Assembly: GCA_965215005.1 (NCBI GenBank)
Contig: CBDCCZ010000018.1
Location: forward strand, 64,001 to 128,000
Direction of reading: 5' to 3'
DNA: 64,000 nt
Source of the DNA: Kofleriaceae bacterium
GTDB lineage: Bacteria > Myxococcota_A > Polyangia > Haliangiales > Haliangiaceae
The notes under the pieces are model-generated. The model was not told where the DNA came from. It did no database searches and saw only the letters and a list, made by a program, of their open reading frames with translations. Position 1 is the first letter of the stretch, and each line of letters opens with the position of its first letter. Shown here piece by piece: positions 3 through 32,444 of this stretch. The position numbers and the translations under genes are program-made.

Positions 3-191
3 GTAGAAGAGCAGCGCCGCGCGTATCGGGCCACGATGGCAGCCTGGAGCGGCGTTGCAGAGCTAACCGGCGTGTTCTTCTGGAACTGGAATGGCGCCGG
101 TGGGCTCAACGATGAAGACTATACGCCGCGCGGCAAACCCGCGGAGGCGCTGCTGCGTGCCTGGTTCCATCACGATTGCTCAGTCGATTAG
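3..191 (+). CDS. C-terminal fragment of a probable glycoside hydrolase (GH113-like TIM barrel); partial at window edge
   Basis: Frame 3 reads [29 protein letters not shown]...[17 protein letters not shown]..., stop TAG 189-191; GxFxWxW and YTPxGKPAE..L..W resemble GH113 C-termini. Confidence 0.6.
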
Positions 192-1330
192 TTTGCCGAT
201 GCGCTCGAAGCGATAGCCACCGGCCTTCGCCGGGCTCGTGGACCGCCAAATGAACATCGCCTTGCCCTTGATGTTTTCCAGCGGCACCGGTCCCCACACC
301 CGCGAATCTTGCGAATTGGCGCGATTGTCGCCCATGACAAAGACGTGTCCTTCGGGCACGACGTAATGGACCTGCGGCTCGCACGCACCGGCACTAGCCG
401 CGTTGGACGCCGGCTCGAGTCGACCGAGCGCCGCCTGTCGCTGGGCCTCGGTGCGATCCTTGTCGGGACCGAGGCACCGCGGGACCGTCGGCAGCTCCTC
501 CATCTCATCGGCGCGCTCCGGTAGCCGCGGAAAGTCGTCCCTGCTGCGATACTCGCGATAGGTCGGCGTTGCATCTGCCGCGCGCTCGGCATCGTCCTCG
601 GGGCGCTCGGCCCGATGCATGACGCTGTAGTTTCGATCGCCGACGGTCTCGCGATAGCGGCTACAGCTGCGCTCGTTCCATTGCCCGAAGGTCTCGTCGT
701 GATCCCAATAGCTACACTCTTGCCCGTCTTGCAGGAGCTCATGAGGCACGGGCTTGCCGTTGACGTAGAGGATGTCGCACCGGACCTCGACCGAGTCTCC
801 GGCCACCGCTACCACGCGCTTGATGAAGTCTTTCTCCGGCTCGCACGGCATGATGAAGACGATGACCTCACCGCGTTCGGGGGCACGCACCTCGAAGAAT
901 TTGGTCATCGTGAACGGGATGCGGATCCCGTAGAGAAACTTGTTCACGAAGATGTGGTCGCCGATTTCCAACGTCGGGATCATCGAGCCCGACGGGATCT
1001 TGAACGCCTCGACCACGAACGCGCGCAACAGCAACGCGATCAGCACCGCTTTGCCGATAGAGGCCGCGTATTCGTGAAGCGTTGATTTGCGAGCAAAGGC
1101 AAGGTGCTCGTCAGCCAGGGCATCGAGCACGCTCAGCTCGCGCTTGATGCCGTCGTCATCGCCATGCTCGAGGGCACTCTGCAGGCGATTTGCGTGTGTC
1201 TCGAGCTCCGAGCGAACGACCGCGGGAACCCGGTCTGGGTGCCGGAGCAAGCCGCGGCGCACCTCGTGTAGCAGCGCTTTGCCCTCACGGCGAACCTGCC
1301 GTTCCAAAGAGCGAGGATTCGCGCCGGCCA

Positions 1331-1331
<1 letters not shown>
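180..1331 (-). CDS. lepB: Signal peptidase I with N-terminal helical extension
   Basis: [10 protein letters not shown] (catalytic Ser), DFIKRVV (catalytic Lys), [14 protein letters not shown] box; ATG at 1329-1331 overlaps the corrected lepA stop (TGATG). Confidence 0.93.
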
Positions 1332-3134
<1,803 letters not shown>

Positions 3135-3168
3135 GCTCGGCGGGTCTACCGCAATTCCCACTGGGAAG

Positions 3169-17147: not shown

Positions 17148-18257
17148 ATGTTGGCCCGAACGGACGTGGTGATCGCACTGCTGCTTGTGAGTGGCGCTGT
17201 TGGGGGCTGTGAGAAGGCAGCGCCCAAGCAGGAAGCGCCGACAGTAGACAAAGCGGCGGTGGAAGTAGCTACCGACCAAGCGCCCAAAGATTCCCGGCCG
17301 CAAGTAGCGCGTGCGGAAGAGGACTCGAAGCCTCGCATCGGCGATCCCAAGTCCGTACCGCCGCCGCCGGTGGTGAAGAAGACCAAGAAGGGCGACTGCT
17401 CGATCGACTATGCGCCGCGGCCAGAGCGGGATCCAAGCCCGATGTGCAAGATCGCCGGCGGCACCTTCATGATGGGCAGCGCCGACGATGATCCGCTGGC
17501 CCACGATGACGAGAAGCCGCAGCACCAGGTGACACTGTCACCCTTCTACATTGATCAATTCGAGGTGACCGTTGCCCAGTACCTGCTGTTTCTGAACACG
17601 GCGGGTGGCCACGAATTCTGCGAGAGCGCGATGAACAGCGAGTGCGTGGGAGTCCGACCGAGCTATGAGCATGGAATGATCGAGAAGCGGGACGGGCAGT
17701 ACGTGGCGGTGGAAGGGAGGGAGCTATATCCGATATCGGGGGTGACCCTTGGGGGGGCTCAGCTGTATTGCGACTGGGTGGGGAAGACGCTACCGACGGA
17801 GGCGCAGTGGGAGTTTGCCGCCCGTCATGACCCAAAGACCGGTGAAGATCTCGTGTATCCATGGGGCAACGGATTCGACCTGCGTCGCGTCTATTGCGGC
17901 GACGACTGCGGAATCGCACTGCCTCTTGCTCGCATCGCACCAGTGGGCTCATTCGATGGCTCGTCGGCCGCGAAGGGTGATGGGTCGTCGCCGCATGGGC
18001 TCTTCGACATGGCAGCCAACGTTTCTGAGATGGTGGCAGATTGCTATCTTCTCAAGCATCAGGCGTGCGATGGAAGTTGCCTGGATCCAATCCAGAAGCT
18101 TCCCAATCGGTGCGGCGGTGTCACCAAGGGGATCTTGACGCGGAAAAAAGGCTTAGAGCGGATCGTACGGGCTGCGAATCGCGCACCAGGAGATGGCTCG
18201 ACCCCCTCCAGCGCTGTCGGCTTTCGATGCGCACGAGTTGAGGATCAGCGCGACTGA
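17148..18257 (+). CDS. FGE-sulfatase/SUMF1 (CLec-fold) domain lipoprotein, non-catalytic
   Basis: Lipobox VGGC; GGTFMMGS, FYIDQFEVTVAQY, LPTEAQWEFAAR, YPWG, GLFDMAANVSE, VGFRCAR; FGE active-site Cys motif absent. Confidence 0.85.
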   Translation: MLARTDVVIALLLVSGAVGGCEKAAPKQEAPTVDKAAVEVATDQAPKDSRPQVARAEEDSKPRIGDPKSVPPPPVVKKTKKGDCSIDYAPRPERDPSPMCKIAGGTFMMGSADDDPLAHDDEKPQHQVTLSPFYIDQFEVTVAQYLLFLNTAGGHEFCESAMNSECVGVRPSYEHGMIEKRDGQYVAVEGRELYPISGVTLGGAQLYCDWVGKTLPTEAQWEFAARHDPKTGEDLVYPWGNGFDLRRVYCGDDCGIALPLARIAPVGSFDGSSAAKGDGSSPHGLFDMAANVSEMVADCYLLKHQACDGSCLDPIQKLPNRCGGVTKGILTRKKGLERIVRAANRAPGDGSTPSSAVGFRCARVEDQRD

Positions 18258-21200
18258 TCCAGCGTAATCACACACACCGTTTTTACGAACTCATCTTCTC
18301 TTAGTCGGGCGTAGCTTCCGTCGCGCAACATCCGCCAGGCGTGCTCTCTCACCTCTGTCGGTGCTATCGTGACCGTTACGTCATACCGCACGGTTCCCGC
18401 GGCCTCGCGGGTGTCAATCGATATTACTTCGAGGATCTCCGCGTCGTAGTGCTCTAGCTGCACGGTTCTCGTCTTGCCTAGCTGGACGCGATCGACGCCG
18501 TCGCGGTGGGGGAAGAGGAGGATGTCTCTGAGAGACTCGGCGAGGTCGTCGTTGAAGTCGTAGAAGGCGCCGGGGCTGTCGCCGCCTTTGGCGGGGGCTT
18601 CGAAGGCCAGTCGGCGGTAGATGACGTCTCCGACTTCACCTTGCTCGGTTTGCACAGCTAAAATCAGGGCCACCTTGAAGGAGTAGATGTTGTCGTCGGG
18701 GACGGAAGAGAGGCCGCTCTCGCTGACCTCGGCCCTCGCCGTTGTCATTCTAACTGCGTAGCCTTCCGCGGTTTGCAGCGGCAGTTGGCGGAGCTGGTCG
18801 AGGTGGTCTTCATCCACCACGAGGCTCGTGCCGTTCCAGCGCACGGCTTGCTCGAAGACGTTGGCCGGTAGGCCGACGTAGTGCAAGCCCAGGACTGCGC
18901 TAACAATGCCGCCTTGAGGCGCTGGCTCCGCGCCTGCGGCGCCGGCGCCCTTGCCTTCTGACTCTCCAGCTTCGCTGCCGAGCTCCTCATTTAGCTCGGT
19001 GAGCTCCTCGAGCTCATTGCCGACTCCTCCTCCGCGGCCGCTGCCACTCGCGCCACTGCCACTGCCACTGCCACTGCCACTGCCACTGCCACTGCCACTG
19101 CCGCTCGCATACTCGGGATGCTCGATCCAGTCGCGCTTGCCCTCAGCGGCCTCCGCGCCTTGTTTGGCCTCGGTCGAGGAGACCGCACGAAGCGCGTTGC
19201 CGGTGCGCCAGAGAGCGACCGCGCGCTCGTCGCTGTCGGCATCGAGCGCAGCGCCGCCTTCCACGGCAACCGGGTCGACGCCCATCACCACCATCCATAG
19301 ATGACGCACGAATGAGCGCTCGTCCTCGGTCATGGTAATCGGCGCGGAGCCGGGCCCGGCACATTGACCGGTGGTGAGGAGGGAGGCGAGGCGCTCGGCA
19401 TCGAGAGCCGCGTACTTCTGCACCAGGTAATCGCGCTGGAAATCCGCGACGCGATGGCCGCGGGAGAACAGGGCTTCGGCGCGAGCGCGTTCTTCCGCGG
19501 TGGGCTCGTCGAAGTCGGCAACATTGGTGAGAGCTCCATCGGGGCGGCGAACGTCCAGCGTCCCTTCCGAGGCCAGCTCGTCGACGAGCTCGGGGTCTTT
19601 GGACTTACTCGCGCGAGTGCCCACGTCGGCGTACTCGCGCAACAGCGCGTCGAGCCGCAGCGCTTGTTGCCGGAACTCATCGCTGTCATCGCCCCGTTCT
19701 GCGCCCGTCTTGGCGGCGACGTAGCCCGCTTGCACGACCTTGATGGTCATCTCGTAGTGCTCGAGGTCAGCGGTGGCGCGAACCGGGTCGAACGTGGCCG
19801 CATCGATCTCCCCGACCTCGATGCCGAGCCGCTGCATCTCCATTTCGATCGCTCGCAGCTGCCCGAGCTTGCTCTGATTGGCAGAATACCAATCGACGAG
19901 CTTGGCAATAAGCTCGGGGTCCGCCTGCATGTTGTTGCGAAATTGCGCGAGCGAGCGCGGATTGCTCAAGTCCAGCAGCCCAGCTCCTTCCAGCGCCTCG
20001 ATAGCGCGCATCGCGCGCACGCCTTCTTTGATACCAATGTCGCTGACGGCGAACATCGTGGCGACATCAGCGATTGTCATGTCCTCCCAAGGAACGTTGC
20101 CGAGAACCTCGCCGCCGTCGCGCAGCATCCGGTACATCGCTTCGGGCGCGTGAACGATGCCCTCGAGAGTGCCAACCGGATCTTCGATGACGTCCGCGGC
20201 GAGGCCCGCCAGCTTGATGGCGGTGCCGATGGCTGGCAGGAAGCGGGCGAGCTTGAGGAGCACTTGATACGAGAGCGCCAACTGCAATGAATAGGTAGCG
20301 GTGCGGCGACCCGTGGTCGAGGGAATGGCCAACGTCGCGGTGGCGATGGGTAGAAATCCGCCCTGCATGACCTCGACCAGGAGCGTGTCGAGATCATCTG
20401 GCAGCTCGAGGTAGAGGCTTGCGCCATCGGCGGCCGCGGGGCCAAAAATCTGGCTCAGGGCGCTGGTGAAGCCGGGGATGGCGGCGACGGGAACTGGCTC
20501 GGCCGCAGGCACCGCACCTTCACCAACGGTAAAGGTGAGCGAGAACGAGGTCGTCGTGACGGTGCCGGCGATAGAAGTGGGCACGAGCAGCGTCGGGTCG
20601 GCTAGCAGCTCCTCGCGCTGGTGCAGGAGAATCTCCAGAAGCGTCTGCAAGCTCCATCCGGCCTGCAATGCAAAGGTCTTGGCGTCGGCGCCGCGGCCGC
20701 GGGTGCCGGAGAAGCGCAGCTCCACACCGGTGGGCGCATCGTCACCGGTGAAGCCGAGGGCAACGCCGCTAGCTTGCTTGCGGTGGCGCGCGTGCAGCAG
20801 ACGCTGATAGACCGACTGCGGCAAGAAGGTGCGCAGGACCAGCTCGATATTCATCGCCGCGCGGAGCTCGATGCCGGCGCCAATGGTGCCGTCGGGCTCG
20901 CCGCGATACACCTGGCCGACGATACTGGCGTCCTCGCCCTCGCCCAGCGAGCTGCGTGCCGGGTCCAAGCGCAGCCAGTCTCCAGCGCCGACGGACACCG
21001 CAGCGAGCGGCTCTTGCAAGAGCGACGGCAAATCACCCACCCTGCGCGCCCACGCATCCGCCGCAAGCTCCTCGACCTTGGGCAACGCATCGGGCGGCAA
21101 GGATTGGGCCTCGAGCGCCATGCCTTTGCCCGCGATGCGGAAGTGCGCCGGAAGCAGCTCCGCGGGCTCGGCATTGCCGGCCAAGGCGCCAATAAGAGTG

Positions 21201-24200
21201 GGATAGTCGTAGACTAGGAAGTTTTCTTCGCGGCGATCGGCAATGCGCAGGCCGCTGGCCGTGAAGCTTACGTCGATGGATTCGATTGCGGCGGACGCGC
21301 CGCGGCGCGCCAACCGGTCGATGGTGCGACGCGCGCCGGCGAGCTTCTCGCTCAGCTGCGCGCGCAAGTCTTCGAGAAAGGCGCGCCGCAAATCGAGGCG
21401 CAGGCCGGGGGCGGTCGCGGCCTCGCCGGTGCCCGCCGCAACGGTGGTGAGCGAAACGTCGCCCCCGCCCGCGAGACCTTTGCCGTAGACGTCCACGGCC
21501 TCGGTGCCAATGGAATCGGCAAGCCAGCCCGGCAGGCGAACGGTTTCGGCAAGCGCCCTGCCCTTGTCGCGCGTGGAGATGCCGGCGCCGAGGGTGAGCC
21601 CAAACTGCGCAGCGCGCTCGACGTGGAGCTCGTCGGGGATCAAGTCGCTGGCGGACAAGCCGTTGGCAATCACGCGATCCAAGCGGTAGACGACGAATCC
21701 GGTCGTTTGGGCGCCTTTCTCGCCGCCGCCAAAGCGGACCGCGAGGCCCGCTTTCTGGCGGCACAGGCGTGGATCGATGCGAATGCTATCGCCGGCCTCG
21801 GCCAGCCCCGCCACGGGAAGCTGCACGCGCTCCCGCAGTGCCGCCGCCAGGCGCTCGACCTCGACGCGTAACAACAAGCCGCGACCGCCGAGATTGGCGA
21901 AGATCTCGGCGCGGTCATCCGGCAAGAACAGCTCGGTGGCGACGCGCTTGCCGACCTCGGGCAGGTGCGCTGCCAGCCATGCCGGCGCCGGAACGTTCAC
22001 GGCAACGATTGAATCACCGCTCGGGCGCGCCACCACAAGCTCGTCGGAAGGCGCCTCGCTCGCTGCTTCGGAGGCGCCGAAGAGAACCTCGCCGACTCCT
22101 TCGTTGCCAAGACGCAGCTCGACGGGGATCAAGTCGCTCGGCTCGATACCGTCGAGAAGCCGCAGAAGATCGAAGGCGACATGCGCGCTGCCAGGATCGC
22201 TTGCGTCATAGATGCGCAGCACGCCATCGCTGCCGAGGTGCAGATAGCGCTGTGCGCCAGCAAGACCTTTCTGCGCGGCGGCGCGCATGCGGCTGGCGAG
22301 GCCGGAAGCGGCGTCGCCGAGGCGGTCGAGCAAGCCGGCGACATCAAACTCAAAGCCGAGCTGGCCGCCCGGAAACGAAGGCAGCAACTCGGTGAGCGCG
22401 CTGAGATCGATGCCAAAGCCCAGGCGCAGGTCCGGCAACAGCTCGAGCGCGGCGCGAACGTCGGGAAGCGGCACGCTCGGCAGCTCCACGGCAAGCGCAC
22501 GCAAAAAGGTCTGCAAGCGCTCGGCAGCGAACTCGACGCTGCCGAGGCCGCCTTCGCCGGTGAACCACGGAATCCGCGGTAGCGCCGAGATGGCGATGCC
22601 ATCGAGCTCGAAATGCAGCCCGCTTGGGATCAGCCTGCCGAGGTCGAAGCCGCCCTCGAGCAAGCTGCCCAAGCGCGCCACCAGATCGAACTCGACGAAG
22701 CCCTCGCCGCACTCGAGCCGCAGGGCGCCGTCGATGACGCGCAGCGCCTTGCGGCCGACCGTGCGGAGCGCCGCGAGCAAACGCTGAGCGGCGGCCTTAC
22801 CGGCGCGACCGAGCTGCTCGAGCTTGGTGAGCAGAAACTGCACGTCGACCGACGCGATCACGCCTTTGTCGGCATCGGCGGAGGCCAGCAGCGCCAGCGA
22901 GAAGTGCTGGTCGGCGTAGAACGGCTGCAGCCAGAGGCTGCCTTCGTCTTTGCCCACAAGCGTGCGCGCAATGGCAGGCGGGGTCTCGAGCTCGAGCGGC
23001 TCGCACAGCGGCTCGCCTTTTCCGGCCAGCGCGGCGGCGGTGTTGACGCCCAAACCAACGGTGCCGACGCCAGCAACATTGAGCAAGACCTCTTCGGGAA
23101 CCAGGCTCGCGAGCGCCAGCCCGCCGGGCTGCAGGAGCCGATCGACGCGCCAGAGAGCATATCCAGTGGCAGCACCTGCACCATCTCCGCCGACGAAGCG
23201 CAGCGCGAACGCGCTGTCGACGCAACGCTCGCGGTCGATCTCGACCGTGGCGGTGATCGGCAGGGTCAGGCCAGGAATCTGGATTCGGCTGCCGAGAGCC
23301 GCTCCCAGGGCCTCTGCGTTGAGGGTAACGAGGATGCCGCGCGCGGTGTCTGCCTCGCCGCGACCAAAGAGGCGCGCGGTGTGGCCGTCGATGAAGAGCT
23401 CGACGGTCATCGTGCCGCTGCTAGCGATGGCGGCGCCGCCCGCGCTGAGGTGAGGGGCGAGCCACGCGGGCGCGGCGATGCCGGTCATAGTGACGACCGG
23501 CGCGCCATCGGGACGCGTTGCTAGCAGCCGATCTGCGACCTGCGTATCAGGACGGGTCGCATCGGTAGCAACCGCGCCCATCTCGATGCTGCCGAGGTCT
23601 CCCGCAGCCGCGCGCAGCTCGACCGGCACCAAGTCGGCCGCATCGGCGCCATCGACGAGGCGCAGGAGGTCAAAGCCCACCTGCACGCCGCCGGGCGCGC
23701 GCGCATCATAAAGCCGCAGGATGCCGTCGCTGCCAAGGTGCAGGTAGCGGCGCGCCAGCGCCATGCCCTTGCCCAGCGCCGCGCGCACGCGGCTCGCAAG
23801 CGTGCCGGCGACCTCGCCCACTCGCTCGAGAAGGCTAGCGAGGTCGAGCTCGAAGCCGAGCTGAACCCCGCGCAGCGAAGGCAGCTGCTCGGCCAAGGCA
23901 TCGAGATCGAAGCCGAGCCCGATCCCGCCGCCGGGAACCAGCTCGAGCAGAGCCCGCACGTTTGGCAACGGCACCTGGGGCAGCTCGAGCGACATGTCGC
24001 GGAGCAGCTGCGCGAGCCGCTCGGTTGGCAGCGCAAACCCGCCGAGCGCGCCATGCTGCAGCCAAGGAATCTGGGGCAGCGACAGCACCGACAAGCCCTC
24101 GAGGTGCAGCTCGAAGCGCGATACCGCTAGCGCCGTCGCATCGAAGCCGCTCTCAACCAGCCGCCCGAGCTGCGCGGCGATATCGAACTCGACCGAGCCG

Positions 24201-27200
24201 CGCTCGCCCAGCGAGAGTTGCAACGCGCCGCGCACCATGGACAGCGCGCGCGATGACACGTCCTGCACGCGCTCCATTGCCTGATCCGCCACGCGCGCGG
24301 CCGCCTTGCCCAGGCGTGCGATGGCCGCGCGAAGCATCGGCAGGTGCACCAATGCCACCACCCCCGTCGCCGACGCTTTCTCGGGCAGAACCGCCAGGGC
24401 CACATCGTCTGCGCCCCAGAACGCCTGCAGCCACACGCTGCCGTCGGGCTTGCCGACCAGATCGAGCACCGCTTTGGGCGGCGCCGTGATCTCGAAGGGC
24501 GGCGCGAGCGGCTCGCCGCGGCCAGCGACGGTCGCGAGAACCTCGACGCCGCGACCGACGACGCCGGCGCCAGGCACGTCGATCATCAGCTCATCGGGCA
24601 CGACGCTCGACAGCCCCTCCTCGAGAAGACGCGGCAGCTGCCATAGCGCATAGCCGCGCGGTCCATCGGCGGCTTGCGGCACCCAGCGAAGCGCCAACGC
24701 GCCATTCTTGCAGCGCTCGCGGTCAACCTCCACCGAACTGAGCAGCGCGGGTGCGCCAGCCAGCGCGGGAGATGCGTTGGCCGCCGCCGTGGCCAGGGCA
24801 TCGAGCTGGAGCATGAAACGCAAGCCGCGGCCTCGCTCGTGTTGCGCAGCGGCATATAGCTCGAGCCGATTGTCCGCAGCGAACAGCTCAATCGTGACCG
24901 CATCGGCGGGCATGCCCAGAAGCCGGGAAGCCAACTCCGGCAGCGGCGCACTGCGCACGCCGCCGGCAGCCATCAGGTGCGGACGCAGCCAGTCGGGCGC
25001 GGCGATATTGGGCAGCGTGACCAGCGGCTCGCCCGCGGGCCGCGCCACCAAAACTTGATCGACGGCGCCGGTAGCCGCTGATGCGCCAGCGCCCATCTCG
25101 ATGGAGCCAAGTTCACCGCCGAGCTGCAGCTCGACCGGCACCAGGTCCATTGGGTCGGCGCCATCGAGGAGCGCCCACAGGTTGAAACCGACGAGCGGCC
25201 CCGGATCGAGGGCTTCGGCGTCGTAGATGCGCAGGATGCCGTCGCTACCCAAGTGCAGCCAGCGCCGCAGCGACTCGAATCCCGCCTCGGCAACCTCGCG
25301 GACGCGAACACCAAATCCTGCCAATGGACCGGTGAGGCGCCCGAGCAGCGCGGGCAGGTCGAGCTCGAAGCCGAGCTGGCGAGGGCCGAGTTGTGGCAGA
25401 AGGTCTGCGAGAAACGCGACGTCGATGCCGAGGCCGAGCCGCAGCGCCGGCGCGTCGATGGCGCAAAGGCGGCCCCAGATCGCGCCAACTGGCACGTCCG
25501 GTAGCGCGGGCAGCGCGCCGCTGAGGCGCGCCAGATAGGATTTGACCCGCGGCCAGGGAATCTCGAACTGGCTCAGTCTCGGCGCCTCCAGCCATGGCAG
25601 CTCGGGCAGCGACCACGCCGCACCCGCGCCGAGCTCGAGGCGGAAGCTTGGCAACCCGAGCCAACTGGGGTCCCATGGCCGAAATTTCGGCCCGTGGAGA
25701 TTGAGGTCGAACTCGAACCACGAGCCATCGAGCTCGAAGCGCAACCGGCCGCGCACGAACGAGAGCAGCCGGCGTCCGCCGCGCGCGAGCGCCTCCACCA
25801 GACGATCGGCCAGCCTCGCCGCCGAGGCGCCCAGCCGCCGCAACAGCGACAACAGGTAGTCGACGCCCACCGTCACCACCACGCCGCGCTCGGCTTTGGC
25901 GTGCAGCTGCAGCGCCAGCGTGCCGCTTCCCCAATAGATCGAAAGCCAAACCGGCCCCGGCTCCGCATCGCCGAGCACGGTTTGGCGCAATTGCTCGGCG
26001 CCCGGCAACTGCCATGCGTCCCCCACCTGCGCAACGCCTGGTGGCAGCACCGACGCGCCGCTCATGGTGCCGCCGTCGTAGTGGCTTACGCTGCCAGCTC
26101 TGCCAAGGTGCAGGCTCAGCTCGACCGGTCGAAGCCCACTAACGTCGCCACGCACCGCCGCTGCGACGACGCGGGCCGCGTCAAACACGACGAAGCTGTC
26201 ACGCTCTCCCAGCCTGCCCAAATCCAGCTGCACGCGCCCCGGCGCCGGACTCGACCAACGCGAGACCCAAGCCGCCAGCCACGGCGCGCTCGCCGGCACC
26301 AGCGCCTCGAGCTCCGCGGCCGTGAGCGCTGCGACCCGTGCGACGCCGGCGAGGATCTCGCCTGGCGTTAGCGTGACGACGTAGCCGCCCGGAGCTCCTT
26401 GCTCTTGAACGAACGCAATGAGCTCGCGGTTGGTCGCCACTACGATCAGCTCAACGTCTGCGTCGGCAATTGCCAGCCCGAGCGCATCCGACAGCGCGCG
26501 AGCCCGCGTGAGCTCGACGCCGGCAGGTGGTGCGTGGACGCGAGCAAGTCGCATCCCGCGAGCACCTATAATGCCGAGAAATCCTCCTTTGGGCACCGCC
26601 AAGGCTTCTGCCGCCGCGGACGTCTCCGTCGCCTCCGCGCTTCGCTGCTGCACCGCGAGCGCGGTCGACTCGTTGGGCGTCGCGACGGCGTCGGCGGCGT
26701 CGGCGGCGTGCAGCTTCCAGTCATCGTTCTGCGGCACCGCCGGCGGCGCGGCATTCGTCGATGGCCCCTGCACCACGCGCGCCGCCAGCGCGTCCGCGTC
26801 GCGCTCATAGGCATCACCGGCCTCGCCAACGCCGCCCTCGAGCTGCACGCCGCGGCGCTGTTGAAGGACGTGCGCGACCTCGTGCGCGGTCGTCTCTAAC
26901 GCGGGACTCTGGCCAAACACGATGTGCTCGCCACTGGCGTACGCCTCGGCACCCATGGCGCGCGCTGATCGTGCTGCGTCCGCACCGGTGTGCGCTTGAA
27001 TCGACGATAGGTCTTGGTCGACAAACGCCGGCTGCAGTCGCTCTAAGAAGGGCAGCGGCTCACTTGCGGTGCGGATTCCATCGGCGGCCGCTGCGTGCAC
27101 TTGCCCGGGCAACGCCGGATGCCGCCCCTTGCGCTGCACCTCCTCGTGCCGCGCCGGCGCGTGCTCCCGAGCCGACGGTGCGGCGTCGGTAGCCAGCGGA

Positions 27201-27670
27201 TGCTCGGCTTCGTCCGCAGGCAACCGCTGCGCCTGCTCTGCAGCTGACCCAGCAAGCGCGCCGTGGAGCTCCTCGACGCCAGCCTCGCCCAGCCGCCTAT
27301 GAAGCGCGCGCACGACTTCATCCTCGAATCGAGGTGTAGCCAAGCGCCGCTCGAGGAGCGCCTTATCCGCCGCGCTCAGCTGGCGTAACAAATACGACAG
27401 CGCCGCTGGATTGCTCGCAGCGCCAACGTTGACGATCATGGCCAGCGATCCGCTTGTAACCACGTCTAGAATGCGTGCAGCCGCCTCGCTGTCACTGGAA
27501 ACGGCCGCCTCGGCGCCGCTTCGCTGCACGGGGCTCCTGCCGCGACGCTGCGCGTTCTGAATAGCCGCCTCTCTCGCCACCCGAGTCGACTTGCCCGGAA
27601 CTCCGCGCGAGCCGAAAGAGTGCCCTTGCGGCTCCTCCTCCTTGTCGCTATCCGGCCGATATCGCCGCAT
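18245..27670 (-). CDS. Giant (~3,140 aa) DUF4157/eCIS-core domain protein with large internal repeats; candidate polymorphic effector
   Basis: Uninterrupted 9.4-kb ORF; DUF4157 signature LPF..RLQ..F..DLS.IQAHT...ARAMGAEAYASGEHIVF....TTAHEVAHVLQQ..YERDAD (~26780-27060); VQR motifs; start chosen at ATG 27670 (ORF is open to 27793). Confidence 0.85.
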   Translation of the reverse strand: MRRYRPDSDKEEEPQGHSFGSRGVPGKSTRVAREAAIQNAQRRGRSPVQRSGAEAAVSSDSEAAARILDVVTSGSLAMIVNVGAASNPAALSYLLRQLSAADKALLERRLATPRFEDEVVRALHRRLGEAGVEELHGALAGSAAEQAQRLPADEAEHPLATDAAPSAREHAPARHEEVQRKGRHPALPGQVHAAAADGIRTASEPLPFLERLQPAFVDQDLSSIQAHTGADAARSARAMGAEAYASGEHIVFGQSPALETTAHEVAHVLQQRRGVQLEGGVGEAGDAYERDADALAARVVQGPSTNAAPPAVPQNDDWKLHAADAADAVATPNESTALAVQQRSAEATETSAAAEALAVPKGGFLGIIGARGMRLARVHAPPAGVELTRARALSDALGLAIADADVELIVVATNRELIAFVQEQGAPGGYVVTLTPGEILAGVARVAALTAAELEALVPASAPWLAAWVSRWSSPAPGRVQLDLGRLGERDSFVVFDAARVVAAAVRGDVSGLRPVELSLHLGRAGSVSHYDGGTMSGASVLPPGVAQVGDAWQLPGAEQLRQTVLGDAEPGPVWLSIYWGSGTLALQLHAKAERGVVVTVGVDYLLSLLRRLGASAARLADRLVEALARGGRRLLSFVRGRLRFELDGSWFEFDLNLHGPKFRPWDPSWLGLPSFRLELGAGAAWSLPELPWLEAPRLSQFEIPWPRVKSYLARLSGALPALPDVPVGAIWGRLCAIDAPALRLGLGIDVAFLADLLPQLGPRQLGFELDLPALLGRLTGPLAGFGVRVREVAEAGFESLRRWLHLGSDGILRIYDAEALDPGPLVGFNLWALLDGADPMDLVPVELQLGGELGSIEMGAGASAATGAVDQVLVARPAGEPLVTLPNIAAPDWLRPHLMAAGGVRSAPLPELASRLLGMPADAVTIELFAADNRLELYAAAQHERGRGLRFMLQLDALATAAANASPALAGAPALLSSVEVDRERCKNGALALRWVPQAADGPRGYALWQLPRLLEEGLSSVVPDELMIDVPGAGVVGRGVEVLATVAGRGEPLAPPFEITAPPKAVLDLVGKPDGSVWLQAFWGADDVALAVLPEKASATGVVALVHLPMLRAAIARLGKAAARVADQAMERVQDVSSRALSMVRGALQLSLGERGSVEFDIAAQLGRLVESGFDATALAVSRFELHLEGLSVLSLPQIPWLQHGALGGFALPTERLAQLLRDMSLELPQVPLPNVRALLELVPGGGIGLGFDLDALAEQLPSLRGVQLGFELDLASLLERVGEVAGTLASRVRAALGKGMALARRYLHLGSDGILRLYDARAPGGVQVGFDLLRLVDGADAADLVPVELRAAAGDLGSIEMGAVATDATRPDTQVADRLLATRPDGAPVVTMTGIAAPAWLAPHLSAGGAAIASSGTMTVELFIDGHTARLFGRGEADTARGILVTLNAEALGAALGSRIQIPGLTLPITATVEIDRERCVDSAFALRFVGGDGAGAATGYALWRVDRLLQPGGLALASLVPEEVLLNVAGVGTVGLGVNTAAALAGKGEPLCEPLELETPPAIARTLVGKDEGSLWLQPFYADQHFSLALLASADADKGVIASVDVQFLLTKLEQLGRAGKAAAQRLLAALRTVGRKALRVIDGALRLECGEGFVEFDLVARLGSLLEGGFDLGRLIPSGLHFELDGIAISALPRIPWFTGEGGLGSVEFAAERLQTFLRALAVELPSVPLPDVRAALELLPDLRLGFGIDLSALTELLPSFPGGQLGFEFDVAGLLDRLGDAASGLASRMRAAAQKGLAGAQRYLHLGSDGVLRIYDASDPGSAHVAFDLLRLLDGIEPSDLIPVELRLGNEGVGEVLFGASEAASEAPSDELVVARPSGDSIVAVNVPAPAWLAAHLPEVGKRVATELFLPDDRAEIFANLGGRGLLLRVEVERLAAALRERVQLPVAGLAEAGDSIRIDPRLCRQKAGLAVRFGGGEKGAQTTGFVVYRLDRVIANGLSASDLIPDELHVERAAQFGLTLGAGISTRDKGRALAETVRLPGWLADSIGTEAVDVYGKGLAGGGDVSLTTVAAGTGEAATAPGLRLDLRRAFLEDLRAQLSEKLAGARRTIDRLARRGASAAIESIDVSFTASGLRIADRREENFLVYDYPTLIGALAGNAEPAELLPAHFRIAGKGMALEAQSLPPDALPKVEELAADAWARRVGDLPSLLQEPLAAVSVGAGDWLRLDPARSSLGEGEDASIVGQVYRGEPDGTIGAGIELRAAMNIELVLRTFLPQSVYQRLLHARHRKQASGVALGFTGDDAPTGVELRFSGTRGRGADAKTFALQAGWSLQTLLEILLHQREELLADPTLLVPTSIAGTVTTTSFSLTFTVGEGAVPAAEPVPVAAIPGFTSALSQIFGPAAADGASLYLELPDDLDTLLVEVMQGGFLPIATATLAIPSTTGRRTATYSLQLALSYQVLLKLARFLPAIGTAIKLAGLAADVIEDPVGTLEGIVHAPEAMYRMLRDGGEVLGNVPWEDMTIADVATMFAVSDIGIKEGVRAMRAIEALEGAGLLDLSNPRSLAQFRNNMQADPELIAKLVDWYSANQSKLGQLRAIEMEMQRLGIEVGEIDAATFDPVRATADLEHYEMTIKVVQAGYVAAKTGAERGDDSDEFRQQALRLDALLREYADVGTRASKSKDPELVDELASEGTLDVRRPDGALTNVADFDEPTAEERARAEALFSRGHRVADFQRDYLVQKYAALDAERLASLLTTGQCAGPGSAPITMTEDERSFVRHLWMVVMGVDPVAVEGGAALDADSDERAVALWRTGNALRAVSSTEAKQGAEAAEGKRDWIEHPEYASGSGSGSGSGSGSGSGSGASGSGRGGGVGNELEELTELNEELGSEAGESEGKGAGAAGAEPAPQGGIVSAVLGLHYVGLPANVFEQAVRWNGTSLVVDEDHLDQLRQLPLQTAEGYAVRMTTARAEVSESGLSSVPDDNIYSFKVALILAVQTEQGEVGDVIYRRLAFEAPAKGGDSPGAFYDFNDDLAESLRDILLFPHRDGVDRVQLGKTRTVQLEHYDAEILEVISIDTREAAGTVRYDVTVTIAPTEVREHAWRMLRDGSYARLREDEFVKTVCVITLDQSR
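19052..19102. repeat. (GCCACT)8 hexamer microsatellite encoding a (Gly-Ser)n linker
   Basis: Eight perfect copies plus a partial, read directly. Confidence 0.95.
21480..25960 (-). repeat. Three diverged ~1.5-kb (~500 aa) tandem repeats inside the giant ORF
   Basis: LHLGSDG(I/V)LR(I/L)YDA at ~25240, ~23725 and ~22225; GPVWLSIYW, GSVWLQAFW and GSLWLQPFY at ~25940, ~24430 and ~22930. Confidence 0.9.
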
Positions 27671-27726
27671 CGCTGTACTTTCGCATTTCGAGCTGGTTTC
27701 GGCGCGCCGCGCGCTCGGTTGCTTCT

Positions 27727-27779
27727 GTCCGGCTGCCCGGCTGGCGAACGGGGACCGGACGGCCGGCGGACACCCGGAC
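27727..27779. promoter_or_regulatory. Imperfect inverted repeat, candidate enhancer (UAS) for a sigma-54 activator
   Basis: GTCCGGCTGCCCG ... CGGACACCCGGAC (11/13 complementary), ~50-100 nt upstream of the -24/-12 site. Confidence 0.55.
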
Positions 27780-27826
27780 GCTGCAACTCGCACGGGTAAC
27801 TATCTGATTTTGTGGGCACCCCGCCG

Positions 27827-27870: not shown

Positions 27871-29145
27871 ATGCCGACGCCGATTCGCGATACCGCCGCT
27901 CAGGACCGCCCGCTCGAGCCGGCGCGGCGTTTCACACGCCGGCGTTTGTTCACCGCGTTGGCCGGCATCGCGGTTGTCGCAGCCGTATCCCTTGCCGGCG
28001 GCCGTTGGCTGTCCGGGGAGGGCTCGGTGGCAGCGGAGCGACTGCGCACCGCCAAGGTCACCCGCGGCACGCTGGTACGCGACGCGGCGGTTAGCGGACG
28101 AGTCGTCGCGGCGGTTAGCCCAACGCTGTATGCGCCGGTCGCGAGCACGGTGTCGCTCAAGGCGCGCGCCGGCGACACCGTCGCCGCGGGGGACGTGTTG
28201 GCGCAGCTGGCCTCGCCGGAGCTGGCCGGCGAGCTCGAGCGCGAGAAGGCGCGGCTCGAAGAGCTGCAAGCCCAACTCGGCAGCGCAAACATTGCCGCCG
28301 AGCAGCAGCGGCTGCTGGCGCGCCAGGAGGCGGATGAAGCAGCCATCGCCCTCACCACCGCACGGCGCGAGCTGCAAGGCACCGGGCGCGCGTGGAAAAA
28401 GGGAGCGGTACCACAGCTCGATTATCTGCGCGCCCAAGACGCTCTCGAGAGCGCCCAGGTGCGGCACGACAATGCCCGCGCCGCCGCCAAGCTCGGTGCC
28501 GAGAGCACCGTGTTTGAATTGGCGACGGTTGCGCAGCAAGTAACGCGACAGCGCCTGGCGGTCGCCGAGCTCGAGCGTCGCATCGCCGCTCTGGAGGTGC
28601 GCGCGCCGGTGAGCGGCATCGTCGGCACCATCGCGGTCGCCGATCGCGCGGTGGTCAGCCCCAATACGCCGCTGATGACGCTGGTCGACCTCAGCCAGCT
28701 CGAGGTCGAGCTCGAGGCTCCGGAAACGTATGCCGAAGAGCTCGGCATCGGCATGCCGGTCGAGATCCGCATCGGTAGCGACACCGCGAAAGGCACGGTC
28801 TCGGCGCTGTCGCCGGAGGTGGTCGACAACCGCGTGCTTGCGCGGGTGCGCTTTGCCGGTACGCAGCCGCCCGGGCTACGGCAGAGCCAGCGGGTCAGCG
28901 CGCGGATTCTCATGGACGAACGTCCAGGCGTGGTCATGGTCCCGCGCGGGCCGTTCCTCGAGGCCCATGGCGGCCGCTTCATCTACGTGGTCGAAGGCGC
29001 GCGAGCGGTTCGTCGAGCAATAGAGATCGGCGCCACCAGCGTGGAGAACGTGGAGGTCGCCAGCGGCCTGCAGCCGGGTGAGGTGGTGGTGATCGCCGGC
29101 AGCGATACCTTCGAAGACGCGTCCGCGGTGCGGCTCACTCATTGA
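27871..29145 (+). CDS. Periplasmic adaptor/membrane fusion protein (MacA/HlyD family)
   Basis: N-terminal TM, lipoyl-like halves (GDTVAAGDVLA; VRAPVSGIV), coiled hairpin, GLQPGEVVVI. Confidence 0.9.
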   Translation: MPTPIRDTAAQDRPLEPARRFTRRRLFTALAGIAVVAAVSLAGGRWLSGEGSVAAERLRTAKVTRGTLVRDAAVSGRVVAAVSPTLYAPVASTVSLKARAGDTVAAGDVLAQLASPELAGELEREKARLEELQAQLGSANIAAEQQRLLARQEADEAAIALTTARRELQGTGRAWKKGAVPQLDYLRAQDALESAQVRHDNARAAAKLGAESTVFELATVAQQVTRQRLAVAELERRIAALEVRAPVSGIVGTIAVADRAVVSPNTPLMTLVDLSQLEVELEAPETYAEELGIGMPVEIRIGSDTAKGTVSALSPEVVDNRVLARVRFAGTQPPGLRQSQRVSARILMDERPGVVMVPRGPFLEAHGGRFIYVVEGARAVRRAIEIGATSVENVEVASGLQPGEVVVIAGSDTFEDASAVRLTH

Positions 29146-29161
29146 AGTCAAGGAGCGCGAG

Positions 29162-29869
29162 ATGTTGGTGATGAAGAACCTCAGCAAACTGTATCGAACC
29201 GAGATGATCGAGACCCACGCGCTGCGCGGCATCGACCTCGAGGTGCGCGACGGCGAGTTCGTGGCGGTGACCGGACCATCGGGATCGGGGAAGACCACCT
29301 TCCTAAACATCGCTGGGCTCCTCGAGGAGCTGAGCGACGGCGAGTATCTGCTCGATGGCCAAGACGTGCGCGGCCTCGGCGACAACGTCCGCTCACGCCT
29401 GCGCAACGAGAAGATCGGCTTCATCTTCCAGGGCTTCAATCTGATCCCGGATCTAAACGTCTTCGACAACGTCGATGTGCCGCTGCGCTATCGCCGCATG
29501 GGCGGCAAGGAGCGCAAGCAGCGCATCGAACAGGCGCTCGAGCGGGTCGGGCTATCGTCGCGTCAGAAGCATTATCCGGCCGAGCTCTCGGGCGGTCAGC
29601 AACAGCGCGTCGCCATCGCGCGTGCGCTCGCTGGCGCCCCGCGCTTCCTGCTCGCCGATGAACCGACCGGCAATCTCGACTCGCAGATGGCCCGCAGCGT
29701 CCTCGAGCTACTCGAGGAGATCAACGCCGACGGAACCACGATCCTCATGGTCACCCACGATCCGGAGCTAGCGGCCCGAGCGCAGCGCAACGTCCACGTC
29801 GTCGACGGCCAGGTGAGCGACTTCATCGTTGAGCCGGTGCACCACTCGCTGCGCGCTAGCGCCGATTGA
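29162..29869 (+). CDS. ABC transporter ATP-binding protein (MacB/LolD type)
   Basis: GPSGSGKTT, LSGGQQQRVAIARAL, LLADEPTGNLD, VTHD. Confidence 0.95.
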   Translation: MLVMKNLSKLYRTEMIETHALRGIDLEVRDGEFVAVTGPSGSGKTTFLNIAGLLEELSDGEYLLDGQDVRGLGDNVRSRLRNEKIGFIFQGFNLIPDLNVFDNVDVPLRYRRMGGKERKQRIEQALERVGLSSRQKHYPAELSGGQQQRVAIARALAGAPRFLLADEPTGNLDSQMARSVLELLEEINADGTTILMVTHDPELAARAQRNVHVVDGQVSDFIVEPVHHSLRASAD

Positions 29870-29879
29870 GGAGATGCAG

Positions 29880-31203
29880 ATGCTCGCCTATTACCTGCGT
29901 CTAGGCTTCCTTCAACTGCGGTCAAGTCCGTTGCTGACGGCGCTGATGGTGCTCACGCTCGCCGTCGGCATCGCCGCCAGCATGTCGACGTTCGCGATCT
30001 TATACGCGATGTCGGGAGATCCCATTCCGCACAAGAGCGACCGCCTGTTCGTGCCGCTCCTGGACGTTCGCCCCGCCGACGAGCCCGACTCGGATCCCGA
30101 ACCGCCGACCCAGCTTACCTATCGCGACGCCATGGCACTCAGGGCCGCCGACAACGTCCTGCGACGCACCGCGATCATCGGTATCTCGCCGGCGGTCGAG
30201 CCCAATATCTCCTCGGAGAAGCCGTTTTTCGCTCACGGCGCCGCGGTCGACGCCGACTTCTTCGCCATGTTCGAGGTGCCGCTGGTGGCCGGCGGGCCAT
30301 GGTCGCGGGTGGATGACGAGCGCGGCGCCAAGGTCGTCGTCCTCCGCGAATCTCTCGCACGGCGGACGTTTGGCGGCGCCGATCCAATCGGCAAGAGCCT
30401 CGTTGTCGCCGCGGAGGAGTATGTCGTGAGCGGCGTCGTCGACGATGACTGGCAGCCGCTGCCGCGCTTCTAACCGGCTGATCGCCGGGCCGAGCGCCTT
30501 CGATGACCCCGAGATGATCTTCCTTCCCTTCACCACCGCGGTAGCGGCCGAAATGGAACCGCAGGGTAGCGTCGACTGCTACGGCACTCGCTCAGACGAT
30601 TTGCAGGGCTACCGCGCGCTCACCGAAGGGGAGTGCGTATGGATTCAGTTCTGGGTCGAGCTGGATTCCGCTGCGGCAGCTGCCGGGCACAGCGACTATC
30701 TCGCCGGTTACGTAGCTCAGCAGCGGGAGCTGGGACGGTTTTCGCGCCCCAATAACAACCGACTGCACAACGTCATGAGCTGGCTCGAAGAAAACGACGT
30801 GGTGTCAAGCGATGCGCGGCTGCAGACCTACCTGGCCTTTGGCTTCCTCTTGGTCTGTCTGGTCAATACGATCGGTCTCTTGTTGGCCAAGTTCACCGCC
30901 CGCGCCGGTGACATCGGCGTGCGCCGGGCCCTGGGCGCGCCGCGCCGCGCCATCTTCCAGCAGTACTTGCTCGAGGCAGGGGTCGTTGGGCTCGCCGGTG
31001 GATTGCTCGGCCTGCTGCTGACCTTCGGCTGTCTATGGCTCGTTGGCCGCCAATCCGATGAGCTGGGCAACTTGGCAAAGCTCGATTGGCTACTGCTCGT
31101 CATCACCTTCGTCCTTGCCGTGTCGGCCAGCTTTCTGGCGGGTTTGTTTCCAACCTGGCGCGCCTGTCAGGTGCAACCGGCGGCGCAGCTCAAGTCGCAG
31201 TAG
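29880..31203 (+). CDS. MacB/FtsX-family ABC permease; +1 indel at ~30472
   Basis: MacB periplasmic core plus DIGVRRALGA; TTC TAAC CGG becomes F-Y-R if one A is removed; SD GAGGAG 6 nt upstream. Confidence 0.88.
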
Positions 31204-31226
31204 CCAGCTCGAGAAGGGATATGACC

Positions 31227-32444
31227 ATGGAGATTCGGCCCATCCTCTCAGCGCTGCTGCGCTCCAAGACCGGCGCGGTCCTGATCGCAGCGCAGGTCGC
31301 CCTTACCCTCGCCATTATCGCCAATGCGCTGCACGTGGTAGAGGAACGCCTCGCCACCGCCGCGCGCCCCACCGGCGCTGATGAGCAGGGGCTATTTCAG
31401 CTCTACTATATGGCGGTCGGAGAGGTCGATGACCCAGCCGCGATGAAGCAGCGCGATCTAGAAATCCTGCGCGCCATTCCCGGTGTCATCGCCGCCGCCA
31501 GCATCAGTCAGGTGCCGCTCGGCCGCAGCGGCTGGAACATGGCCTTCACGGCCGATCCCAAGAACGATGCGACAAGCGCGTCGTTTTATTTTGGTGGCGC
31601 GGCGATGGTCGACGCCCTCGGCGTCACGCTGGGCGAGGGACGCGCCTTCACCGAGGACGACGTGGTCGAGATTGATTCGCAGCGGGCGAGGCCGGAGGCG
31701 GAGGTCGCGATGGTGACGCGCCATCTCGCCCAGCAGCTGTGGCCAACGGAGGGCTCGGTGGTCGGCAATACCATCTATCTTGGCTCGGGCGCCGACGCCA
31801 AGCCGATGCGCGTGATCGGGGTGCTCGACATGCTGATGAACCCCTGGGGACAGGTCTCTGACGAGGCGTACAAGGCGGTATTGATACCGGTGAATCATTT
31901 AACCAGCTCCGCCCAATATGTGGTTCGCGCCGAGCCCGGCCAGCGCGCGCGGGCGATGGCGGCGGCAGAGGAGCAGCTCAGCGCGCTGCGGGATGACCGC
32001 ATCCTTCTATCCAACCGCACGATGGACGAGCTGCGCACCGAGCGCTACCGCAATGAGCGGACGGGCGCCGGCCTGCTCATCGCCGTGAGCATTGGCCTGC
32101 TCCTGATCACCGGCAGCGGCATCGTCGGCGTCGCCAGCCTGTGGGTGAATCAACGGCGCAAGCAGATCGGTGTGCGCCGCGCCCTCGGCGCCCGGCGCAT
32201 CGACATCTTGCGCTACTTCGTTACTGAGAACCTGCTCATCACCACTGGCGGCACGGTTCTCGGCGTGGCCCTGGCCATCGTCCTCAATCAACTGTTGATC
32301 ACGCGCTTGGAGCTGGCGCCGCTGCCGCTCCGATATGTCGCCGCCTGCATGGTCTGCCTATGGGCACTCGGAATCGCCGCGGTGCTCGGTCCCGCTTGGC
32401 GCGCAGCAGCGGTTCCGCCGGCGGTGGCAACCCGCAGCGCCTGA
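31227..32444 (+). CDS. Second MacB/FtsX-family ABC permease
   Basis: MEIRPILSAL start, QIGVRRALGA, ENLLIT. Confidence 0.9.
   Translation: MEIRPILSALLRSKTGAVLIAAQVALTLAIIANALHVVEERLATAARPTGADEQGLFQLYYMAVGEVDDPAAMKQRDLEILRAIPGVIAAASISQVPLGRSGWNMAFTADPKNDATSASFYFGGAAMVDALGVTLGEGRAFTEDDVVEIDSQRARPEAEVAMVTRHLAQQLWPTEGSVVGNTIYLGSGADAKPMRVIGVLDMLMNPWGQVSDEAYKAVLIPVNHLTSSAQYVVRAEPGQRARAMAAAEEQLSALRDDRILLSNRTMDELRTERYRNERTGAGLLIAVSIGLLLITGSGIVGVASLWVNQRRKQIGVRRALGARRIDILRYFVTENLLITTGGTVLGVALAIVLNQLLITRLELAPLPLRYVAACMVCLWALGIAAVLGPAWRAAAVPPAVATRSA

Follow-up and report, generated by a model that had tools for sequence, protein, structure and literature searches.

A 64,000-nucleotide window of the Kofleriaceae bacterium assembly GCA_965215005.1 (contig CBDCCZ010000018.1, here C18, positions 64001-128000; the assembly comprises 6.2 Mb in 62 contigs and is 92.8% complete) carries on its minus strand, at 18245..27670, an uninterrupted gene for a protein of 3,141 residues, hereafter the giant protein. 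We propose, with a probability of roughly one half, that this protein is an orphan cargo of an extracellular contractile injection system (eCIS) with a new body family. This reading is favoured because the N-terminal leader and DUF4157 domain of the protein together form the published cargo signature, because an injection machine is present in the genome, and because relatives of the gene lie beside CIS_tube or AAA genes.

The giant gene, its leader and the eCIS of the genome

The open frame extends from 18245 to 27793 and would specify 3,182 residues if started at a GTG at 27793. The ATG at 27670 (3,141 codons plus stop; contig positions C18:82245-91670) is preferred since two paralogues in the same genome start with MKRYRP, comparable with the MRRYRP found here. 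A first-pass annotation, made by a model from the letters of the window, had described an open reading frame (ORF) of about 3,140 residues at this place, and every motif that it listed was read at its coordinates, including PGKSTR (27581-27598), VQR, which occurs twice (27521-27529 and 27131-27139), LARFLPAIGTAIKLAG (20204-20251) and a (GS)n stretch (19067-19102). The domain order it gave is likewise confirmed: a hydrophilic leader (residues 1 to ~205; 27056..27670), the DUF4157 domain (residues 211-274; 26849..27040), the large repeats, a helical region, a linker and a beta-rich tip, all on the minus strand. Between DUF4157 and the repeats lies a family-conserved pre-repeat region without a Pfam match (residues 331-509; 26144..26680), defined from the A3 consensus. 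The first 60 residues are hydrophilic, in agreement with the earlier view that there is no signal peptide. The highest 19-residue hydropathy in the whole protein is 1.61, so that no clear membrane helix is present, no lipobox was found, and neither Pfam nor NCBIfam revealed a recognised export signal.

PF13699 (eCIS_core, that is DUF4157) matched the protein over profile positions 9-78 of 79 (E 4.6e-15); the score of 56 bits clears the gathering cut-off of 22, and the N-terminal slice alone scored 60.5 bits (E 1.8e-16). The match lies inside the interval 26780-27060 predicted for it, and the HEVAH motif is intact (residues 263-267; 26870-26884). It is the sole Pfam family found in the giant protein; compared with the same domain in the paralogues of contigs C10 and C23, the identity is 65-74%. 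As the eCIS toxin survey describes it, DUF4157 shows a strong specificity for eCIS and precedes toxins on their N-terminal side, with intervening "linkers" that may exceed 1,000 residues (PMC8213781).

The leader, aligned with the C10, C23 and C49 paralogues, holds both MRRYRP and VPGKSTR. Its residues 1-47 are 45% identical to the C10 paralogue, and a charge-hydropathy plot places residues 1-60 in its disordered half. Within the first 250 residues, the leader motif [VIW]P[GC]K..R is present in eight of the 4,510 open frames of at least 300 residues in the genome; six of these eight are long DUF4157 frames, and only two of the 4,504 other frames carry it. The AlgoCIS cargos Cgo1 and Cgo2, in the preprint's own description, consist of a disordered N-terminal domain followed by DUF4157 and a large C-terminal domain; the N-terminal domain is needed for loading and is alike between cargos of one system, while DUF4157 is dispensable and the C-terminal part variable (bioRxiv 10.64898/2026.05.27.728243). 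By analogy with that preprint, the leader of the giant protein is a putative loading sequence.

The machine is represented on two contigs. Contig C40 contains, in order, Pvc16_N, a sheath, a gp19-like gene, a second sheath, a tube gene, a 1,359-residue ORF of no family, CIS_tube, a GPD hub, two Phage_base_V spikes and gp25. Contig C25 begins with a Baseplate_J fragment, after which come FHA-domain genes, an AAA ATPase and a 200-residue eCIS_core protein. The two contigs probably adjoin and would then make one complete eCIS locus. The sheath, tube and spike genes that the first-pass annotation had suggested looking for in the genome are all found there. No sheath gene (VipB) of a type VI secretion system was found in the genome, and that route of delivery was rejected for the giant protein. 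On C25 (10986-16076 and 45-2775) the eCIS locus has four FHA-domain genes interspersed in it and is bordered by genes for a Ser/Thr kinase and a PP2C phosphatase, an arrangement that suggests phospho-regulation of the machine. Far from the locus, two stand-alone genes (C23:133968-135221, 418 residues; C4:45411-46466, 352 residues) each encode one or two T4 gp19 tube-like domains.

PF13699 was detected at nine places in the genome. Besides the giant protein these include two small proteins, on C25 and C60, and long ones on C10 (1,405 and 855 residues), C23 (1,428 residues and a 607-residue remnant) and C49 and C37 (1,735 residues). The remnant (C23:109383-111206) lies just past the 1,428-residue gene, lacks the leader, reads ASHVHEVTHVL at the motif and resembles a decayed duplicate. 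The 1,735-residue proteins (C49:168512-173719 and C37:92702-97909) are near-identical; they match DUF4157 weakly and contain PGKRTR twice. An exported FGE-sulfatase gene lies just upstream of the C49 copy, and none was found beside the C37 copy by tblastn. The 1,405-residue paralogue (C10:97682-101899) has GWGT[ND]ED-type repeats, annexin-like by eye, and an HEIAH motif at its end. A paper on bacterial annexins reportedly mentions DUF4157.

A rare modular body and its C-terminal tip

Behind the pre-repeat region the giant protein consists of three units of about 500 residues, namely R1 (residues 510-1010; 24641..26143), R2 (1010-1510; 23141..24643) and R3 (1510 to ~2000, mapped to ~1998; 21677..23143), which by self-comparison are 35-43% identical and account for the ~1,500 residues of large repeats described at first pass. 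The same triplication is visible in the DNA, where the copies are 68-78% identical at a spacing of 1,497-1,527 nt; it is old and was not created by the assembly. For R2, an AlphaFold2 model calculated from a 21-row alignment that included typed parts of stored relatives reached pLDDT 80.6 and pTM 0.76 and shows a chain of small subdomains of mixed beta/alpha structure. The last 1,200 residues were modelled from a 16-row alignment with a mean pLDDT of 64.2. This second model is beta/alpha up to ~2467, corresponding to a post-repeat region (residues ~1999-2467; 20270..21676) that is conserved in the family alignment; it is helical over ~2468-2844 (19139..20269), of low confidence over the Gly/Ser-rich acidic linker (~2845-2921; 18908..19138), which is predicted to be disordered, and beta-rich in the C-terminal tip (~2922-3141, modelled over ~2922-3138; 18248..18907).

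The first-pass annotation had recognised neither body nor tip, and no family library or fold search that we ran did better. Pfam applied to seven slices at E values up to 10 returned nothing besides DUF4157, NCBIfam and PHROGs gave no match to the giant protein, and a sequence-profile search of the PDB nothing at E < 0.1. Foldseek against the PDB gave TM-scores of at most 0.2 for the R2 model and likewise for the C-terminal model, where nothing was convincing; across both searches the few matches at E <=0.001 were PCNA and nuclear-pore chains with rmsd >20. Wide VIA-align searches stayed below the background of 7-8 stated for the tool, with a top Z of 5.6 for R2 (the UL44 clamp, over 69 residues) and of 5.2 for the C-terminal model. 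Foldseek of the C-terminal model against BFVD gave no match at E <=0.001, the ESM Atlas held no usable match for R2 and scored 0.77 at best for the tip, and tblastn of R2 against phage and plasmid collections found none. A word-indexed protein search with the whole giant protein scored 0 of 2,634 candidates, and one with the repeat profile among longer proteins returned only two matches, P0011 and P0019. Sixty relatives searched with 2,811 residues under a strict filter produced two matches of ~18 bits, at chance level, and the A2 pattern scan of the genome contigs detected no relative. With a confident model and no recognisable relative, the repeat module is a candidate new domain family.

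To collect homologues, the last 1,200 residues were run as a query in a full HMMER scan against 1.84 billion representatives. This yielded 17 proteins at E <=0.001, 10 of them at <=1e-30 and most of them 1,734-3,191 residues long. They are either without a name or called "hypothetical protein", and the named records belong to metagenome-assembled genomes (MAGs) of Kofleriaceae. Their common plan comprises one to four repeat modules, the post-repeat region, a conserved motif, the helical region, an acidic or Gly-rich linker and the tip. By repeat profile the family occurs in six of 147 genomes of the order, the genome under study included, and all carriers belong to one taxonomic family (five of 137 without the genome under study); an even sample of the phylum added two of 400 other genomes, with distant relatives only. 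The body, the helical region and the tip are not duplicated elsewhere in the genome. The body family is very rare, modular and new. DUF4157, in the same N-terminal position, was found in only four of the 21 relatives scanned (P0003, P0013, P0014 and the gene of genome G154), and is therefore an optional addition to an independent body family and not its defining feature. A family that exists both with and without DUF4157 offers a natural experiment on what this domain and the leader add.

The helical region opens with the best-conserved motif of the C-terminal half, FLPAIGTAIKLAG...EDPVGT, for which the consensus is FLP..G...K.A......DP.GT. P2479, G2482, D2497 and P2498 are invariant in 16 sequences; the stretch 2479-2498 (20177-20236) has a pLDDT below 50 in the model. 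The DP.G pattern may bear a faint likeness to the Rhs cleavage motif. At 1.60, the hydropathy of the helical region is not high enough to mark a clear membrane helix.

The tip is the least conserved and fastest-evolving part, with 10-21% identity to relatives as against 21-46% elsewhere, and it has the lowest G+C content (0.619 versus 0.681 for the giant gene). These values would suit the proposal of the first-pass annotation that the C-terminal ~220 residues vary as in a polymorphic toxin, in which a conserved delivery body carries interchangeable toxin domains. That proposal is largely refuted, and we now regard it as very improbable. With a profile made from the tips of 13 relatives, the tip of the giant protein obtains 15.4 bits (E 2.8e-4), whereas 500 shuffled sequences reached at most 6.0 bits; the relatives' tips being homologous at profile level, the picture of swapped domains is contradicted. 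The aligned tips also begin with a common W-[DN]...L.L.E pattern, relative P0014, as read from the alignment, has this tip type twice and not a different one, and no co-oriented immunity gene follows the giant gene. By alignment and profile, the tip is of one domain type in all relatives. Its first half weakly resembles an NTF2/VirB8-like cone (VIA-align Z 3.6-4.7), a common arrangement; the fold searches saw the tip only within the 1,200-residue C-terminal model. A diversity-generating retroelement acting on the tip was considered and rejected, as no repeat was found that pairs with the tip region.

Conserved neighbours and the weighing of the readings

The gene that converges on the giant gene (17148..18257, plus strand) encodes an FGE-sulfatase-like exported lipoprotein of 369 residues (PF03781, E 1.1e-39); the two genes overlap by 13 nt at the stop of the giant gene. 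The first-pass annotation rightly saw nothing co-oriented downstream that could be an immunity gene (the minus-strand ORFs there overlap the FGE-like gene) but missed this conserved convergent one. A tail-to-tail FGE-like neighbour is present in all three close contexts with a 3' flank, namely the window and genomes G154 and G115. In G154 (contig C7) the homologue has 2,573 residues and a DUF4157 domain, and its stop codon abuts that of the FGE-like gene; in G115 (contig C230) it has 2,440 residues, no DUF4157 and an overlap of ~2 nt. The FGE-like proteins are 42-50% identical (50% between the window and G154, 42% between the window and G115), and each starts, as read from the sequence, with a signal peptide and a lipobox cysteine. 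The neighbour in G154 is the best match in its genome (E 1.9e-72; next 1.2e-14) and that in G115 one of two near-equal best matches. No orthologue was found at E 1e-10 in three MAGs in which the giant gene is cut by contig ends. Human FGE possesses a catalytic cysteine pair after an RGGS motif. A conserved C-x4-C at that place was not seen by eye in an alignment of the three FGE-like orthologues with one another. A link of FGE-sulfatase or formylglycine to eCIS or DUF4157 was not found in the main texts of the literature searched, that of Geller et al. included.

From its conservation the FGE-like lipoprotein, newly described here, appears to be a partner gene of the giant gene; it could be a periplasmic protector, immunity-like in function, or a binding factor. 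Prediction of a complex between the FGE domain and the tip spoke neither for nor against binding. Were the partner an immunity protein, the orphan cargo would be an antibacterial toxin whose C-terminal part acts in the periplasm of neighbouring cells. The constant tail-to-tail arrangement is consistent with such a pair, as is the export of the partner, which is usual for periplasmic immunity proteins, and only three or four PF03781 genes exist in the genome under study, two of which adjoin long DUF4157 genes (the giant gene and the 1,735-residue gene on C49). The partner is, however, conserved at 42-50%, against 10-31% for any part of the giant protein (alignment A1), which is unusual for a co-evolving immunity protein and weakens this version. 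Moreover, two distant family members in the phylum sample have no such neighbour within the DNA fetched, DUF4157 and FGE genes are not generally adjacent in G115 or G154, and no toxin domain was recognised. We therefore consider a toxin-immunity pair distinctly unlikely. Published eCIS toxins mostly come without immunity genes (PMC8213781; often absent also in PMC11297309), and the conserved exported partner is a concrete candidate for one.

A gene for a WHD-AAA ATPase (PF22977 and PF00004) adjoins the homologue in three of five contexts (G122, G115 and G154). The genome under study has three WHD-AAA paralogues, and on C60 one of these lies at a distance of 1.5 kb from the small DUF4157 gene. 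In genome G136 (= G063) the homologue comes two genes after a CIS_tube gene (PF19266, E 5.9e-20). The same genome gave seven CIS_tube matches, several on contigs without sheath matches, and these scattered genes, one of them beside the giant homologue, may be orphan tube-cargo islands. Genome G154 has 52 PF13699 matches in 9.5 Mb, compared with nine in the genome under study, and thus an exceptionally large set of DUF4157 genes. The linkage of the three genes in relatives could also indicate a conflict or defence module with no part in injection, in which the giant protein, the WHD-AAA ATPase and a sensor-like FGE-domain protein would act inside the producer or at its membrane. We find this improbable, given the export of the FGE-like protein, a window in which no WHD-AAA gene adjoins the giant gene, and a leader and DUF4157 that point to an eCIS.

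We infer the loading, injection and activity of the orphan cargo, and the role of its partner, from these domains and gene contexts. The leader (MRRYRP...VPGKSTR) that is common to the long DUF4157 proteins of the genome would be a loading sequence specific to its system. An AAA+ ATPase would unfold the giant protein and thread it into the tube lumen, and DUF4157 with its HEVAH motif may be an accessory part in handling or processing. Upon contraction the 330-kDa protein would be expelled and would refold into an elongated body made of three ~500-residue beta/alpha modules, the helical region and the fast-evolving tip. The suggestion of the first-pass annotation that the protein is cargo for an eCIS encoded elsewhere has in this way gained circumstantial support, from the eCIS on C40/C25, the AlgoCIS-like order of parts and a leader that is nearly exclusive to DUF4157 proteins.

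Several observations weigh against an orphan eCIS cargo. The giant gene on C18 is not within about ten genes of the eCIS operon on C40/C25, and a scan of 27 neighbouring ORFs in the window revealed no CIS gene; in the toxin sets of the published survey, 88% lie within ten genes of the operon (PMC11297309). DUF4157 is missing from 17 of the 21 scanned relatives, several of which are N-terminally incomplete. The WHD-AAA gene is not next to the giant gene in the window, and its product shows no similarity at E 1e-5 (tblastn) to the AAA protein of the eCIS locus, which belongs to a different subfamily. Known lumen cargos are smaller or largely disordered, unlike the body of the giant protein, which is very large and, by prediction, well folded. 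The first-pass annotation had named homologues with invariant C-termini in genomes without an injection system as a finding that would refute a polymorphic effector. Sheath genes occur in six of six carrier genomes; yet they also occur in 124 of 138 genomes of the taxonomic family (122 of 136 without the unpublished G087 and G088, both positive), and this co-occurrence is therefore uninformative. Lastly, an exported lipoprotein partner fits a role in the envelope as well as one in immunity.

The last point belongs to a reading in which the giant protein is not injected at all and is an elongated structural or adhesive element of the producer's envelope or surface, its assembly assisted by the WHD-AAA ATPase, anchored or received by the FGE-like lipoprotein. 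DUF4157 would then be a maturation peptidase and the variable tip would bind ligands. Export of the partner in all three close contexts agrees with this, as do a body built of one to four module copies in the manner of rod-shaped surface proteins, a fastest-evolving tip placed behind a flexible linker, the lack of DUF4157 in the majority of family members and the distance of the gene from the eCIS operon. Against this, the giant protein has no signal peptide, lipobox or clear membrane helix and no export signal known to Pfam or NCBIfam; the leader, too, is specifically common to DUF4157 proteins. Upstream and divergent to the giant gene (27871-32444) lie a MacA/HlyD-like gene, an ABC ATPase gene and MacB/FtsX permease genes, and this operon was rejected as an export route because it is not conserved beside relatives. 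Taken together, an envelope protein is the chief rival to the orphan cargo but seems unlikely to us.

More tentatively still than the orphan cargo itself, we put forward as a possibility, on the doubtful side, that the giant protein, the FGE-like lipoprotein and the WHD-AAA ATPase form a three-gene module, not described before, in myxobacteria of the Kofleriaceae type. Such a module would amount to a new effector class, giant, folded and modular, that brings an unfoldase of its own and a protector or receptor in the periplasm; in some lineages it would have been plugged into an eCIS through the addition of leader and DUF4157. If the giant protein is indeed loaded, it would be among the largest of eCIS cargos, and well folded and modular, which bears on the capacity of the tube and on the engineering of delivery tools.

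Two further features of the window were recorded. In the divergent operon (29829-32444, plus strand) the MacB-like permease is split, with a MacB_PCD ORF (29829-30473) overlapping an FtsX ORF (30445-31203), maybe through a frameshift, and a second, complete MacB_PCD and FtsX gene follows the split one. At 180-3161 (minus strand) a frame of 993 residues contains LepA (GTP_EFTU, LepA_C) and, after residue ~697, a Peptidase_S26 signal peptidase I; this is either a lepA-lepB fusion or a missing stop codon between the two.

Comparison with known systems

Afp18 of the Serratia antifeeding prophage is a very large toxin located in the lumen of an eCIS tube; it is not known to have DUF4157 or repeats of this kind.

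The Tme protein of Streptomyces davawensis (2,247 residues), as described in its publication, is likewise very long, begins with DUF4157 and is associated with a contractile injection system. It is ~70% disordered, with several predicted membrane helices, homology to tape-measure proteins and nucleases, and a fixed place in the gene cluster (PMC11126660). The giant protein, on the other hand, is predicted to be folded, has no clear membrane helix, no PHROGs match and, DUF4157 apart, no Pfam match, and is encoded outside the cluster. A remote tape-measure similarity is possible.

The eCIS-associated toxins (Geller et al. 2021, Danov et al. 2024), in the surveys' general account of them, share with the giant protein an N-terminal DUF4157 that is sometimes followed by more than 1,000 residues before the C-terminal domain. 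They are mostly encoded within ten genes of the operon and carry recognisable or short toxin domains, whereas the giant gene is an orphan and its product has no recognised toxin domain (PMC8213781, PMC11297309). What would count as the "linker" of such a toxin (PMC8213781) is in the giant protein a conserved module, predicted to be folded and repeated three times.

The closest parallel in architecture is with AlgoCIS Cgo1 and Cgo2, which were compared by their description in the preprint. They have a disordered leader, DUF4157 and a larger folded C-terminal part in the same order, and as their leaders are similar within one system, so is the leader motif here common to six long DUF4157 proteins. 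The two AlgoCIS cargos are much shorter (498 and 1,228 residues, against 3,141) and are encoded with their own eCIS, while the giant gene is on another contig; and, unlike in Cgo1 and Cgo2, the C-terminal part of its product belongs to a family of repeated modules that occurs without DUF4157 as well. Set beside these systems, the DUF4157 cargo-type architecture is known, and what is new is the rare modular body together with its conserved exported partner.

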